The notes under the pieces: model-generated
What the model was told of the DNA's origin: nothing
What the model saw: the letters and a program-made list of their open reading frames with translations, nothing else
Database searches by the model: none
DNA from: a virus
Strand: one strand, 5' to 3'
Length of the DNA: 34,166 bases
IMG/VR virus record: IMGVR_UViG_3300045988_047610
Location: 1-34,166 of that record
Shown here: one piece after another, positions 8,253-33,685 of the stretch
Layout of the letters: every line of letters begins with the position of its first letter
Position numbering within the stretch: position 1 is the first letter of the stretch
Program-made: the position numbers and the translations under genes

Positions 8253-8615
8253 ATGCCTATTATTAACCCAATGTATTTGTATTTGATTGAGGTACTACAT
8301 AATATTGATGTGCTTAATCAAGGTTTGTTTATTATGCTAACCATTGTGATATGTGGCTTTTTTGCTATATGGCTTGCAGATGATGAAGTACGGGAGTTAT
8401 CTAAGCCGCATAAAGGAAAAATCATTGCGTTATTTGTGGTGTTCGTAATTAGTGGATTAATAGCGTTATTAGTACCTACCAAAGATGCAATGTATAAAAT
8501 GCTATTGGCGCATTATGTAACAACTGATAATATCCAGCTTGTAAACGATGCTATCAAAGTTAATTTACAAGACTATTTGAACATGTTAGGGGAAACGGTT
8601 AAGAATTTAAGATAA
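8253..8615 (+). CDS. Membrane protein (about 120 aa, 2-3 TM segments)
   Basis: ATG 8253 lies 8 nt after GGGG (8241-8244). ATG 8247 is only 2 nt away. Hydrophobic stretches LFIMLTIVICGFFAIWL and IIALFVVFVISGLIALLV. Confidence 0.5.
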   Translation: MPIINPMYLYLIEVLHNIDVLNQGLFIMLTIVICGFFAIWLADDEVRELSKPHKGKIIALFVVFVISGLIALLVPTKDAMYKMLLAHYVTTDNIQLVNDAIKVNLQDYLNMLGETVKNLR

Positions 8616-8635: not shown

Positions 8636-9139
8636 ATGACGGATAAAGAATACAGGGAATTAGGAAAAGAATACCTAGAACCGATTAAATTAATTTCAAT
8701 GAAAATTAAATCATTGAAAGAAGATCTAAAGCATTTGCAATCCGATATAACAACGATTGGGGCAGTTGATTATAGTAAGGAACGTTTAAGCGGTGGCGGA
8801 ACGCCGGGCGGGTTAGACCGTCAAATAGTACGCCTTGAAAGTAAACGCGATGCCGTACATAAAGAAATAGGTGCGTTAATTGATGAACGCGAAACGGCGG
8901 CGGATATCATCAACCAATGCACCATAGGGAAAACCAATATATTATTAATGCGTGAATACATCGACGGGGAAAGCGCAAAATATGCTAAAAGTTTTACTGA
9001 TTTAGGTAAAACGCAAGCCGCAGAATTGAAAACACTAGGCCTTATTAAAGTAGGGAAATTTTTACATGATACGTATTATCCAAGCATGTATACAGGGAAA
9101 TCGGTACAAGTCGAACTATACCGAACTACAACGGAATAA
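8636..9139 (+). CDS. Putative late-gene transcriptional regulator (RinA/ArpU/DUF1492-like, sigma region-4-like C-terminus); tentative
   Basis: Last gene before the packaging module. ILLMREYIDGES...TQAAELKTLGLIKVGKFL resembles r4-type HTH regulators. ATG 8636 follows GGGGGA; the alternative start at 8615 overlaps the upstream stop. Confidence 0.4.
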   Translation: MTDKEYRELGKEYLEPIKLISMKIKSLKEDLKHLQSDITTIGAVDYSKERLSGGGTPGGLDRQIVRLESKRDAVHKEIGALIDERETAADIINQCTIGKTNILLMREYIDGESAKYAKSFTDLGKTQAAELKTLGLIKVGKFLHDTYYPSMYTGKSVQVELYRTTTE

Positions 9140-9216
9140 TACGGAAAAGCTATATATAGTATAATTATATTGTCAAATGATGCTTAAAAGGTCATTGGCG
9201 TAATTCTCCTATATAG

Positions 9217-9256
9217 CACAATGCACAGGGGAACTTTGGGCCGTTCCCCTATTGTG
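9217..9256 (+). promoter_or_regulatory. Stem-loop (outer CACAAT/ATTGTG, inner AGGGGAAC/GTTCCCCT, 8-nt loop)
   Basis: Read from the sequence. Lies about 80 nt after the stop of 8636-9139. It is followed only by TATTGT, so it is a weak terminator at best. Confidence 0.35.
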
Positions 9257-9424
9257 TATTGTAAACCGATACCGATAAAATAGAATTCCTTTCAAACATA
9301 CACAGCCATAAAAGACAATCCTATCAAATATAAATATGTACTTCCAAGCACAACAACAATAAACCTAATTTCATGTGATCCATATCGGTATTGGTTTAGA
9401 GTACACATATCAAACATTGAAAAC

Positions 9425-9574
9425 TGGGGCCGTTCGGTTTCCTAGGAACTAGGCCACGGGCCTACGCCGTTGAGAGTGCGGCGGTATGGCTCCGGTTTTG
9501 AGTGTTTAATACATGACAAATGAATAAAGCTATCAGAATATGAGGTATATCCACGGCGATATATCTCATTTTTT
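9425..9574 (+). ncRNA. Candidate structured RNA: GC-rich hairpin cluster ending in an intrinsic terminator (hypothetical)
   Basis: Hairpins: CCTAG-GAA-CTAGG (9441-9453), AGGCC-ACG-GGCCT (9451-9463) and CGCCG-N9-CGGCG (9465-9483). These are followed by the terminator at 9540-9574. No coding potential. No promoter was identified. Confidence 0.3.
9540..9574 (+). terminator. Intrinsic terminator candidate (12-bp AT-rich stem with one G-U pair, loop CACGGC, T5 tail)
   Basis: ATGAGGTATATC / GATATATCTCAT followed by TTTTT. Confidence 0.5.
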
Positions 9575-9695
9575 GTATAAAAGTAACATTTGATTATTGA
9601 AAACTGAACATAATGCACATTTTTTATTTTAAGAGATATCACCTTTCATAGTTTCCAGTGATCTTTTAGTGCGGCGTGTTCGGTTTTGAGTAATT

Positions 9696-9729
9696 AAAAA
9701 AGCCGCCCTGTGTAGGCGGCCTTTATTTT
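9696..9729. terminator. Bidirectional intrinsic terminator
   Basis: AAAAAA-GCCGCC-ctgtgta-GGCGGC-CTTTATTTT. There is a U-tract on both strands. It sits directly after the stop of the minus-strand ORF 9731-9886 and at the end of the + strand early region. Confidence 0.75.
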
Positions 9730-9730
9730 G

Positions 9731-9886
9731 TTATTCGTAGTAGTGGCAAGCGATAACTTCGTTTGTGTTATTGTCGATTAATTGCCATTCAAAACCGAAA
9801 CTCATTGTACTGATGAAATCGGAAGCATCTGTTTTGTTTTCAAATTTCCATGTTTTGTTTGTGTTTACATCTTTAAGTGTTAGCAT
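9731..9886 (-). CDS. Unannotated 51-aa acidic protein (MLTLKDVNTNKTWKFENKTDASDFISTMSFGFEWQLIDNNTNEVIACHYYE)
   Basis: AAGGAGAA SD lies 7 nt upstream of ATG (9886-9884). Consensus promoter upstream and terminator immediately downstream. Below the 60-aa cut-off of the ORF track. Confidence 0.6.
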   Translation of the reverse strand: MLTLKDVNTNKTWKFENKTDASDFISTMSFGFEWQLIDNNTNEVIACHYYE

Positions 9887-9938
9887 TTTAAATTCTCCTT
9901 TTTGAATACTTGCGTTTTCTGATGTATCTTATGGCTTA

Positions 9939-9967
9939 ATTATACTTGCGTTTTCGCAAGTAGTCAA
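9939..9967 (-). promoter_or_regulatory. Near-consensus sigma-A/sigma-70 promoter: TTGACT - 17 nt - TATAAT (minus strand)
   Basis: -35 = 9967-9962 and -10 = 9944-9939 on the minus strand. The spacer is exactly 17 nt and is occupied by the operator palindrome. Confidence 0.7.
9943..9962. promoter_or_regulatory. Operator O4: 20-bp palindrome TACTTGCG-TTTT-CGCAAGTA, same family as the immunity-region operators. A half-site TACTTGCGTTTTC lies at 9907-9919.
   Basis: Perfect 8-bp arms. Same CTTGCG-N4-CGCAAG core as 33557-33574, 33594-33609 and 33663-33680. Confidence 0.65.
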
Positions 9968-10018
9968 TAGGGAAATTAAAAATTTTTCAAAAAGTTTTGT
10001 GAAGGTGGTGAAAAGCTA

Positions 10019-10207
10019 GTGAATATCATATGTACAAAATCAAAATGCCTTAACAACAAAGGCGGCAGATGTATAGCTAACGAAATATATTATGACGGCT
10101 TATGCCAAACATATTGCACTAGCCAACACGCCAGCAAGCAGCACGCGGGAATATGCCAACGATCACATGGCAGAATGAAAAGCAAAGATAACAACATACT
10201 ACGATAG
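10019..10207 (+). CDS. Small Cys-rich protein (62 aa), DUF1540-like pattern (tentative)
   Basis: GTG start 8 nt after GAAGGTGGTG. C-x4-C...C-x13-C-x3-C spacing (ICTKSKCLNNKGGRCIANEIYYDGLCQTYC). Confidence 0.4.
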   Translation: MNIICTKSKCLNNKGGRCIANEIYYDGLCQTYCTSQHASKQHAGICQRSHGRMKSKDNNILR

Positions 10208-10218
10208 GGGGTGAAACA

Positions 10219-10590
10219 ATGGCAAAAACTACATATAAGGACTGGGAAGCAGAAGAAAAGATTTTGCTTTTACAAGGCTGGGCGCGTAACGGTTTAACAA
10301 ATGAACAGATTGCCAGCAATATGGATATTGTTGTTTCTACCTTATGGGAATGGCGCAAGAAATCACCGAAAATATCAAACGCCTTAAAAATAGGAAAAGA
10401 CGAAGCGGACATACAAGTTGAAAATGCACTTTATAAAGCAGCGTTGGAAGGTAATACAACGGCTATGATTTTCTGGCTTAAAAATCGACGTTCTAAAGAA
10501 TGGCGCGATAAGATACAACAGGAAATTACAACAGAAAGCGCCGTTAAGTTGGTTATTGATAATAACGAATTGAGTGATACAGATGAGTAA
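10219..10590 (+). CDS. terS: Terminase small subunit
   Basis: HTH GLTNEQIASNMDIVVSTLWEWRKK and AMIFWLKNRRSKEWRDK are typical of TerS. Lies immediately upstream of TerL. Confidence 0.8.
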   Translation: MAKTTYKDWEAEEKILLLQGWARNGLTNEQIASNMDIVVSTLWEWRKKSPKISNALKIGKDEADIQVENALYKAALEGNTTAMIFWLKNRRSKEWRDKIQQEITTESAVKLVIDNNELSDTDE

Positions 10591-14125: not shown

Positions 14126-14150
14126 AACGCTCCGTAATGGGGCGTTTTTA
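14126..14150 (+). terminator. Intrinsic terminator after the portal gene
   Basis: AACGCTCC-gtaat-GGGGCGTT (8 bp, one G-U) followed by TTTAT. Confidence 0.6.
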
Positions 14151-15197: not shown

Positions 15198-16184
15198 ATG
15201 GCAGACCAAAGAAACCAAGTTAATATCCCAGCAAATTTAGTACCTAAAGTATGGGCTAAAAAAGTATGGCATGAAGGCGTTAAAGACTCTTATTTTGATA
15301 AATTCACTGCAATGGACGGTTCCAACGTAGTACACCAAAATAAAGACTTAACAAATGTTAAAGGCGATAGCGTAGTATTCGGCTTGATGATGAATTTAAC
15401 AGGCTCCGGCGTTGAAGGTAATAGACAAAAATTATCTGGCGCAGAAGATACTTTGAACATTTACGATTTTACTGTACAAACTCAATTAGTACGTAATGCG
15501 GTATCTCGTTTTGAAGCGGACGACCAAAAAAGTCAATATGATATGTTGAAAGAAATTAAAGGCGCATTGAAACAATGGCTATCTGACTGGCTTGATAATA
15601 AATTAATTTCTAAACTTTCCGCAACTCCTACATCAAATGATGAAGCAGTATATGCAAGTGCAGCTAGTACACAAGCTAGCATTACGGCAAATGATAAACT
15701 AACAACAACTATCATTTCCCGTGCTAAACGTAAAGCAATGATGCATGCACCAAAAGTGCAACCGATTAGGGTTGACGGCATGGATAAATATATTATGCTT
15801 GTATCTCCGTGGGCGGCACGTGATTTAAAAGATGATCCTAAATGGTTGGCAGCACAGCAAAACGCAAATGTACGCGGTTCTAAAAACCCTATCTTTACAG
15901 GCGCGTTAGGCGAATATGACGGCGTTATTCTATATGAATATGAACGCGTAGCAAATATGGCCGTTGGCGCATCTAGCGCTAACGTATGCCATAACTTATT
16001 GTTAGGTAAACAGGCGGCATGCTTCGCAGTAGCTAGACCAGCGAAACACATCGAACAAATGGACGATTACGGCAATATTGCTGGTAATGGCATTGCGTTC
16101 TATGGCGCAGTTGAAAACACACGGTTTAATAGTAAAGACTACGGCTTTATTCATGTATTAACTGGTGGCGCGGTTGAACACTAA
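15198..16184 (+). CDS. Major capsid protein
   Basis: 328 aa following the scaffold gene, with a strong SD (AAGAGG) and a terminator directly downstream. Family not verified; possibly N4 gp56/P22-like by recollection. Confidence 0.75.
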   Translation: MADQRNQVNIPANLVPKVWAKKVWHEGVKDSYFDKFTAMDGSNVVHQNKDLTNVKGDSVVFGLMMNLTGSGVEGNRQKLSGAEDTLNIYDFTVQTQLVRNAVSRFEADDQKSQYDMLKEIKGALKQWLSDWLDNKLISKLSATPTSNDEAVYASAASTQASITANDKLTTTIISRAKRKAMMHAPKVQPIRVDGMDKYIMLVSPWAARDLKDDPKWLAAQQNANVRGSKNPIFTGALGEYDGVILYEYERVANMAVGASSANVCHNLLLGKQAACFAVARPAKHIEQMDDYGNIAGNGIAFYGAVENTRFNSKDYGFIHVLTGGAVEH

Positions 16185-16197
16185 TTTTTGAATTATG

Positions 16198-16224
16198 GGC
16201 GGGGTAATACCCGCCTTTATTCTT
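16198..16224 (+). terminator. Intrinsic terminator after the capsid gene
   Basis: GGCGGG-gtaata-CCCGCC followed by TTTATTCTT. Confidence 0.7.
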
Positions 16225-33496: not shown

Positions 33497-33545
33497 ATTT
33501 AACCTCCGCAAACTATAAATAAAAATTTATAAAATTTACGAAATG

Positions 33546-33685
33546 TTTATTGGACTACTTGCGTTAACGCACGTATAATAAAGCCATAAGGTAGTTGCGA
33601 AAACGCAAGCAATCTTATAAACAATCGTGTTATAGCAAGTGGTGAAAGGTGAGATATTTATTACTTGCTATAACGCAAGTATAAC
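33546..33685. promoter_or_regulatory. Immunity switch: three operators inside or next to two tandem rightward promoters
   Basis: O1 = ACTTGCGTTAACGCACGT (33557-33574), O2 = GTTGCGAAAACGCAAG (33594-33609), O3 = ACTTGCTATAACGCAAGT (33663-33680). O1 fills the spacer of P1, which is TTGGAC(T) at 33550-33556 plus TATAAT at 33574-33579. O3 fills the spacer of P2, which is TTTATT at 33657-33662 plus TATAAC at 33680-33685. No leftward promoter for the repressor was identified. Confidence 0.65.

Follow-up and report, generated by a model that had tools for sequence, protein, structure and literature searches.

How a phage transcribes its packaging and virion genes when a structured, terminator-bearing non-coding stretch lies in front of them is the question raised by a viral record that is complete at 34,166 bp and bears repeats at its termini (IMGVR_UViG_3300045988_047610), the whole of which was analysed and is referred to here as the window. 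On its + strand, genes for RusA, a dUTPase, a protein of 122 amino acids (aa) and a regulator are followed by non-coding DNA at 9140-9730, and then by a 51-aa open reading frame (ORF) on the minus strand (orf51), a Cys-rich 62-aa ORF (orf62), terS (10219), terL (10574) and portal (12123). The original prediction, made from the sequence of this one genome, described an order of regulator, structured RNA, terminators and packaging genes, which was borne out. The six elements it listed all exist at or close to the positions given, and most of them far exceed chance expectation. The prediction also saw no credible ORF in the stretch, and indeed the ORFs listed there are on the minus strand only and 35-66 aa long, two of the three overlapping a segment (9408-9508) that is an indel among relatives.

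The stretch is best explained as the 5′ leader that the single late operon of the phage would carry, transcribed from a promoter predicted at the left edge of the region. It contains three paralogous RNA hairpin modules of 100-155 nt, each closed by a stem of ~23 bp around an AUUG/GAGU core with a G·G mismatch, and a terminator, hairpin e, that is conserved in sequence.

The regulator protein is 82% identical to one encoded on L081, a contig of a Veillonella parvula metagenome-assembled genome (MAG) that is presumably a prophage, and the window therefore represents a temperate Veillonella phage. A search of GenBank phage DNA returned only a weak terS match to Lactococcus phages, and a search of GenBank phage proteins with the regulator returned no match. 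Comparisons were based on 79 related viral contigs fetched by a regulator protein search (77-98% identity) and on a wider contig set retrieved via hairpin e, which adds a second phage group of ~40 kb with a homologous regulator and the same leader plan. Most of these relatives come from one metagenome and many are close kin, so that the counts given below do not represent independent events. When the window was mapped onto the 79 contigs, conservation was found to be uneven: 9100-9260 is conserved in ~68-79 of them, 9260-9407 in 31-56 and 9515-9701 in 78-79, while 9408-9508, a GC-rich island, aligns in only ~13.

A predicted late promoter at the left edge of the stretch

The regulator, a protein of 167 aa, is encoded by an ORF at 8615/8636-9139, with MTDKEY at 8636 as the likely start, and its gene lies upstream of the packaging module, with orf62, terS, terL and portal coming after it. 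It matches PHROG 36, annotated as 'transcriptional regulator' (E 2.7e-11), and has no direct sequence match in Pfam, NCBIfam or PDB. A profile search over 1.8 billion proteins reached proteins of 140-150 aa, ten of which were sampled: four carry PF07374 DUF1492 (three of them above the curated cut-off), and three show sub-threshold matches to Sigma70_r4 or Sigma70_r4_2. As judged from these profiles, the regulator probably belongs, at some distance, to the DUF1492/LtrB family of late activators, DUF1492 being family III (LtrB) among the late transcriptional regulators (Ltr) of phages of Gram-positive bacteria (PMC3753634). The likeness to lambda Q/qut logic that had been suggested for the locus was not upheld for the regulator: searches of the regulator against Pfam, PHROG, NCBIfam and PDB sequences retrieved no Q-family protein.

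Ltr proteins bind direct repeats located at or just past the 3′ end of their own gene, and in staphylococcal Ltr phages a terminator sits between ltr and terS; the late promoter of Phi13 needs a TATA box together with four repeats (-107 to -42) that lie where the ltr coding sequence ends (PMC3753634, PMC3152322, PMC13123087). The arrangement found here is of the same kind. Five direct repeats of the form nCGRAm, phased by 10 bp with their CG at 9102, 9112, 9122, 9132 and 9142, run across the end of the regulator gene; the pattern matches the genome at this single place (9101-9146) and is conserved as TCGGAC/TCGGAA in 81 loci. Tandem Repeats Finder detects such repeats in relatives only, the diverged repeats of the window going undetected. 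The sequence ATATAGTATAAT, which follows and contains a TATAAT hexamer without a -35 element, is invariant across 81/81 aligned loci. Positions 9160-9165 are accordingly predicted to be the -10 of an Ltr-dependent late promoter, whose start site would lie near 9172. In distant relatives the repeat sequence changes along with the regulator and the layout remains constant: other 10-bp repeats, CCGACCTAA, stand at the same place in L083, and TGTCCGCAAA in 3.6 copies in L121, which has TAGAAT at the -10 position. The C-terminal tail of the regulator (9095-9139) varies among relatives in length and sequence; because its coding sequence overlaps the phased repeats, this segment seems to be constrained as a DNA site and not as protein.

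A promoter at the left edge implies that the whole stretch to 10018 would be transcribed as the leader of the late operon. The original prediction had missed this promoter and had placed the region upstream of the late operon; the region does precede the late genes, but as part of their predicted transcript. A second argument comes from four relatives that lack any inserted cargo. There, the last module (module 2) abuts the orf62 ribosome-binding site, and late-gene transcription must therefore begin upstream of it.

Three paralogous hairpin modules

In each module a 5′ motif, ATTGWAAAC, pairs with a 3′ motif, GTTTWGAGT, through A-U, U·G, U-A, G×G, four A/U pairs and C-G. Pairing continues on both sides of this core, and the three hairpins stand back to back. 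This anatomy accounts for several elements that had been described separately. An inverted repeat reported at 9263-9276 / 9384-9397 is present and longer than claimed, since the arms of module 0 span 25 nt (9253-9277 / 9383-9407) and are 88% complementary. A GC-rich island with three short hairpins at 9425-9495 also exists, and corresponds to the interior of module 1, in which three small stem-loops are held within the long closing stem. Two diverged tandem modules had been proposed as well. Their repeated ends are real (ATTGAAAACTG at 9416 and 9596, CGGTTTTGAGT at 9493 and 9681), whereas the duplication itself dissolves on inspection, as these ends are the complementary 5′ and 3′ arms of two hairpins and the paralogous hairpins number three, not two. 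The motif GGTTTWGAG occurs three times in the 34-kb genome, always in the leader and always on the + strand.

Module 1 folds at -49.2 kcal/mol (z -5.6) on the + strand and at -34.1 on the minus strand, and the + strand of module 2 also folds much better than its minus strand (Table 1). Pairing has therefore been selected on the + strand, most simply as RNA.

The three modules differ in how widely they are kept. A scan of 80 loci located the 3′ core of module 2 in 75 of them, the interior being of at least five types among close relatives; the 3′ core of module 0 is present in this form in ~30 of the 79 fetched relatives, other variants occurring elsewhere. Module 1 is an indel, neighbouring relatives joining 9407 straight to 9509, and its 3′ core occurs in 13 of the 79. 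The consensus fold of module 1 (13 distinct sequences) has 38 pairs, four of which show compensatory double changes, all within one lineage. A strict scan counts 1-3 modules per leader, most often two. Of 90 distinct complete leaders, it recognises at least one module in 88, and the remaining two have a wobble variant and a hybrid one, so that no complete leader examined, in either phage group, is without a module. The leader of L121 has four back-to-back long hairpin domains, three of them with the core, followed by hairpin e. A hybrid module combining a TAAA-type 5′ arm with an AAAA-type 3′ arm was observed in L143, and loss of module 0 between two TTGTATA cores in L043. Recombination of paralogous arms accounts for such gains and losses of modules.

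Of the modules retrieved by a motif-plus-pairing scan over 1.39 Mb of fetched loci, 332 share the strand of hairpin e and 3 are on the opposite one; shuffled sequence yielded none, and 313 of the 332 lie inside the leader. They comprise 219 distinct modules with 110 distinct arm pairs, in which the A/U pairs of the core read AAAA, TAAA, TATA, AATA or ATAA on the 5′ arm, each with its matching 3′ partner. The inner stems contain 1397 Watson-Crick and 305 G-U pairs, as compared with 19 A-C and 31 other mismatches. For covariation, the arms of 56 distinct modules were aligned without their interiors and joined by an artificial GAAA loop: 92% of the cells are paired and 18 of the 23 pairs change on both sides, and slid controls of the same alignment are 34-45% paired. 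The covariation score of 0.652 (0.240 for shuffles) was reached by 0/500 shuffles, figures that are partly circular because the filter demanded that the four core pairs and most neighbouring pairs be complementary. Neither the strand bias nor the shuffle control depends on this filter, and the same holds for the G-U excess over A-C. Conservation of the stems in homologous phages, which had been proposed as a check of the structures, is seen as pairing that is kept and that covaries, with changes on both sides.

None of the Rfam 15 covariance models matched the window at its gathering score, so the proposed comparison with known RNA families returned no assignment. At E values up to 10, most matches, including the best, fall on the hairpin of terminator f, and the rest are weak matches of miRNA, snoRNA or sRNA type, far below gathering. 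A scan for tRNA and tmRNA genes found none. Among species-representative genomes, the stringent form ATTGAAAACTG..YGGTTTTGAGT has one convincing match, in a Veillonella MAG, and ten others that lack extended pairing. The units of 22-31 nt at the module junctions (GTTTWGAG...TTGWAAAC, ending ATTGAAAAC) look like the repeats of clustered regularly interspaced short palindromic repeats (CRISPR), a candidate that was rejected, as none of 82 Veillonella genomes has the pattern more than once or in an array.

A terminator conserved in sequence

Hairpin e had been called as an intrinsic terminator, and such a structure is present at 9540-9575, with a GC-containing stem and a U tract. Among 89 distinct copies, 99.5% of the cells of its 12-bp stem are paired; at one position A-U is exchanged for G-C in 31 copies, and one G-U pair is kept in 81. 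Loop and flanks are nearly invariant, and the whole is flanked by direct repeats of 15-16 bp, TGnATAAAnnTAWCA. On this comparison, the conservation of hairpin e exceeds what a plain terminator would need.

The element is also portable, being found in three contexts. In the window it lies 5′ of module 2; elsewhere it stands directly before orf62, whose start codon follows the stem after ~26-29 nt (40-kb group) or 33 nt (L083); and in relatives without the terS type of the window, a second copy lies between an alternative, Terminase_2-like terS and terL. This second copy has a perfect 16-bp direct repeat, TTGTATAAATCTATCA, on its flanks, and the terL ATG after it has no Shine-Dalgarno sequence. 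The alternative packaging front end, which consists of a 99-aa ORF and the Terminase_2-like terS, is seen at 6286-8426 of L033 and in most loci that lack the terS type of the window.

Three other readings of hairpin e and its surroundings were considered. A leader peptide, ATGAATAAA..., would end at the hairpin; it was rejected, as it lacks a Shine-Dalgarno sequence and its ATG is replaced by TTG/TGT at the second copy of the element. A candidate DnaA box, TATCCAC, at the top of the stem and in the loop agrees with only 7/9 consensus positions. As for a classical attenuator, inspection by eye revealed no conserved alternative pairing in which the 5′ arm of hairpin e would engage the linker or the 3′ arm of a module.

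Upstream of the modules, a further hairpin (hairpin a), expected at 9217-9256, was found there, folding at -20.2 kcal/mol (z -3.5). In relatives, its GC stem is either kept or replaced by another GC hairpin at the same place. It is probably the terminator of the early (ltr) transcript, and as such would be the first barrier in the late leader.

Possible roles of the modules in late transcription

Our tentative preference is to regard the modules as cis-acting leader RNA elements that would allow transcription to read through barriers into the late genes, a reading that is plausible rather than probable. In the proposed mechanism, Ltr would bind the phased repeats and late transcription would start near 9172; the transcript would then have to read through hairpins a, e and f. 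The modules would permit this read-through, either by processive antitermination of the put type or by providing a site at which a factor is loaded onto the polymerase, with the outcome that the packaging and virion genes would be reached by Ltr-initiated transcripts only. A more specific form of the proposal, in which the modules are cis-acting RNAs of a new family that, like HK022 put in function, render RNA polymerase terminator-resistant and are used in tandem copies together with Ltr-type activators, is possible, if somewhat unlikely. Late transcripts had been expected to pass terminators, and the three terminator-like hairpins a, e and f do all lie 3′ of the predicted late promoter and 5′ of orf62 and terS. 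Two further intergenic terminator-like hairpins are found on the + strand inside the late operon, at 14126-14150 after portal and at 16197-16216 after the ORF at 15198-16184.

Several observations, besides the circularity mentioned for the covariation figures, weigh against a role in read-through. The late operon has no more terminator-like sites than its shuffles do. The interiors of the modules are freely variable, and the copy number ranges from 1 to 3 by strict scan, which would be unusual for an RNA that binds the polymerase precisely. Nor is the order of module 2 and hairpin e fixed: the module comes after the hairpin here and before it in L083, and in the 40-kb group all modules lie 5′ of hairpin e. 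Finally, an invariant TATAAA stands directly 3′ of hairpin e and could be a second promoter, in which case hairpin e would serve as an insulator and read-through would be less needed.

Another proposal is that the modules are RNA processing or stability elements, the ~23-bp stems being substrates for RNase III-type cleavage that would remove the leader and determine where the late mRNA begins and how long it lasts. In that case hairpin e would be either a structure protecting an RNA end or simply a leaky terminator of the ordinary kind. We regard this as unlikely, even if the anatomy suits it: the stems measure about two helical turns, contain one conserved internal mismatch and bear a variable apex, only their base being conserved, and module 2 ends a few nt 5′ of the orf62 ribosome-binding site in cargo-less relatives. 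The staphylococcal phages phi11 and 80alpha provide a further argument, as their late 5′ end adjoins terS, more than 155 bp from the RinA site, a distance that, according to the authors, simple activation cannot explain (PMC3152322). However, the 80alpha 5′ end was reported as primary (PMC3152322), and processing would leave unexplained both the typical presence of 2-3 tandem copies and the sequence conservation of a strong terminator.

The TATAAA that follows hairpin e is central to a third proposal, namely that the leader yields a trans-acting late non-coding RNA. An Ltr-dependent RNA of 0.4-0.65 kb, made up of tandem hairpins and ending at hairpin e, would serve some protein of the host or phage as decoy or scaffold, and the late genes would be transcribed from the TATAAA. 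Promoter, module array and strong terminator do form a complete transcription unit, and the multiplicity of modules suits a titration role. The TGnATAAA..TAWCA repeats flank hairpin e in a way that fits as well, the downstream one lying 14-17 nt before orf62 in the 40-kb group and, before terL2, the terL that follows the second copy of hairpin e, 9 nt from an ATG without Shine-Dalgarno sequence. Such a role is nevertheless decidedly unlikely, given that the TATAAA has neither a -35 element nor a TG extension and no Ltr boxes nearby, that module 2 and terminator f still separate it from orf62 in this phage, and that no candidate partner protein was identified.

It is also conceivable, though very doubtful, that the modules are dispensable self-propagating hairpin repeats, spread by recombination or in the manner of miniature inverted-repeat transposable elements (MITEs) through a tolerant leader and functionless for the phage. 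Modules are present or absent as indels, hybrid and deleted ones arose by recombination between cores, interiors are variable, and the same leader collects inserted gene cassettes. Against this, at least one module is retained in every complete leader, the orientation is strictly one-sided and the location confined to the leader, and the G-U excess over A-C is strong. The arms covary, so that no single transposase-binding sequence is kept; the stringent ATTGAAAACTG..YGGTTTTGAGT form gave its one convincing species-genome match in the Veillonella MAG, and a looser inter-module junction pattern occurs at most once per genome in the 82 Veillonella genomes. A MITE proper was rejected on the covarying arms, the confinement of copies to the leader and to one strand, and this single convincing genome match; no clear target-site duplication was seen at the module 1 junction.

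Least probable by far is a DNA-level site, with hairpin e and its flanking repeats and/or the modules forming a pac/cos recognition region or another protein-binding DNA structure: the terminase genes adjoin, and hairpin e combines unusually high sequence conservation with 15-16-bp direct repeats on its flanks, but the same hairpin precedes two unrelated terS types and occurs twice in some genomes, its stem conserves a G-U wobble on the + strand only, and the G-U over A-C excess of the modules points to single-strand pairing on that strand, so that the pac/cos alternative raised earlier gained no positive support.

Feature coordinates, inserted cassette and first late gene

The coordinates of the features are collected in Table 1.

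Table 1. Features of the predicted late leader and its borders (positions in the window)
Feature	Coordinates	Strand	Basis or remark
Late transcriptional regulator gene (Ltr, probably of remote DUF1492/LtrB type)	8636..9139	+	PHROG 36, profile search
Predicted Ltr binding boxes, five 10-bp-phased direct repeats nCGRAm	9101..9146	+	overlap ltr 3′ end
-10 hexamer TATAAT of predicted late promoter, no -35 element	9160..9165	+	within ATATAGTATAAT
Hairpin a, GC stem GGGGAAC/GTTCCCC, then U/G-rich tail	9217..9256	+	fold, relatives
Module 0, core AUUGUAAAC / GUUUAGAGU	9253..9407	+	fold -28.7 kcal/mol, z -5.0
Module 1, core AUUGAAAAC / GUUUUGAGU, GC-rich interior	9408..9511	+	fold, indel
Conserved block: TGAATAAAGCTATCA, hairpin e, TGTATAAAAGTAACA	9521..9588	+	stem 9540-9551/9558-9569, U tract 9570-9575
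Module 2, core AUUGAAAAC / GUUUUGAGU, outer stem conserved	9589..9698	+	fold -33.8 kcal/mol, z -5.5; minus strand -15.2
Terminator f, bidirectional, end of inserted orf51 cassette (9702-10001)	9702..9729	.	terminator scoring
orf51, 51 aa, 9886-9731, own promoter/operator 9967-9939, antisense insert	9731..9967	-	ORF list, alignment
orf62, Cys-rich small protein, first late-operon gene; terS next at 10219	10019..10207	+	ORF list

Terminator f had been recognised as bidirectional and is so: it ends the minus-strand orf51, and a T-rich tail is also found on the + strand. Its place in the leader is confirmed as well, with the qualification that it belongs to an inserted cassette and not to the regulatory core. 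This cassette (9702-10001) comprises terminator f and orf51 with its promoter; many relatives have other cargo in its place, and it is absent from the cargo-less L015, L018, L075 and L080, in which 9701 joins 10002, that is, the orf62 ribosome-binding site. An anti-terminator pairing between GCGGC (9671-9675) and a GCCGC in the 5′ arm of terminator f, which had also been proposed, is not conserved, since the segment of module 2 varies by interior type and terminator f is missing from the cargo-less relatives.

The promoter/operator of orf51 (9900-9975, minus strand) and an immunity-region promoter (33540-33615, + strand) share a mean column identity of 84%, CTTGCG-N4-CGCAAG palindromes included. 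As a near-copy of the immunity promoter, it suggests that orf51 is probably repressor-controlled and would be transcribed antisense into the late leader after induction. Most relatives keep the sequence AATTCTCCT, which lies at 9203-9211 in the early leader and recurs at 9890-9898 as the antisense of the orf51 ribosome-binding site.

The site just 3′ of module 2 is an insertion hot spot, relatives having no insert, orf51 alone or cargo of ~0.4-1.0 kb. The cargo of L033 (4951-5938), for example, carries minus-strand genes, including one for a 60-aa protein resembling helix-turn-helix proteins and ORFs of 111 and 117 aa. The terminal terminator of each cargo abuts an A-run.

The first late gene in all phage groups seen is orf62, with homologues in L031, L046, L083, L112, L162 and L163. 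Its product has five invariant Cys residues (C-x4-C-x7-C-x10-C ... C) and a basic tail, and matches to DUF1540 are weak and sub-threshold (7/9 members, best E 0.043).

Significance and comparison with known systems

Late control in temperate phages of the Firmicutes lineage has so far been understood only as the activation by Ltr of a promoter 5′ of terS. In the region described here, an Ltr promoter is clearly predicted for phages of Veillonella, a genus abundant in the mouth and gut. The region also contains RNA hairpins of one family that recur, covary, keep to one strand and have no Rfam match, and a portable terminator conserved in sequence, beyond shape. If the hairpins control read-through, they would add a second, RNA-based layer to late control and would show how terminator-bearing cassettes can be tolerated in a late leader. 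Should they act as antitermination modules, late control in these phages would combine promoter activation with RNA-mediated processive antitermination, and the same logic might explain the distance from the RinA site to the 5′ end of the late mRNA in staphylococcal phages. If they prove to be processing sites or decoys, they would still represent a well-defined new RNA motif, for which V. parvula offers a genetically tractable host.

The lambda Q/qut system, with PR′, 6S RNA and tR′, shares with this locus a late promoter directly after the late regulator gene and a short leader whose strong terminator precedes all late genes. The present leader is much longer and modular; searches found no Q-family protein and no sigma-dependent pause element was identified, the regulator looking instead like a sigma-region-4-type activator with upstream repeats.

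The put RNA of HK022 consists of two stem-loops, ~70 nt in total. Like the modules, it is a structured RNA placed between a promoter and terminators, and the modules, too, could act without being translated. They differ in being hairpins of 100-155 nt in 1-3 or more copies, of which the basal stem alone is conserved, and no similarity to put was found in sequence or in Rfam.

The RNase III hairpins of phage mRNAs, such as the R sites of T7 and those of SP82, are likewise repeated long hairpins with an internal mismatch in untranslated parts of operons. Those described here are clustered in the leader, in contrast to the intergenic ones of T7 and SP82, and they carry large variable apical domains; cleavage is hypothetical in their case.

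The closest relationship is to the Ltr systems (RinA, ArpU, LtrB/DUF1492 and LtrC; phages phi11, 80alpha, phi55 and Phi13). In both cases a small regulator gene immediately precedes the packaging genes, and direct repeats lie at its 3′ end or just beyond; a -10 of TATA type stands without a -35 element, ltr and terS are separated by a terminator, and a single late operon follows (PMC3753634, PMC3152322, PMC13123087). The Veillonella phages differ in their diderm Negativicute host and in a regulator that is remote and has no direct Pfam match. They differ further in a leader of 0.4-0.9 kb with tandem long hairpins and a sequence-conserved terminator, neither of which is described in these reports (PMC3753634, PMC3152322, PMC13123087); literature searches likewise brought up no account of antitermination, or of a leader that is long and modular, in Ltr-type phages. 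The layout of Ltr gene, repeats, promoter, terminator and terS adds a new example to a type already known, whereas the module family and the conserved terminator are, as far as Rfam and literature searches show, new.

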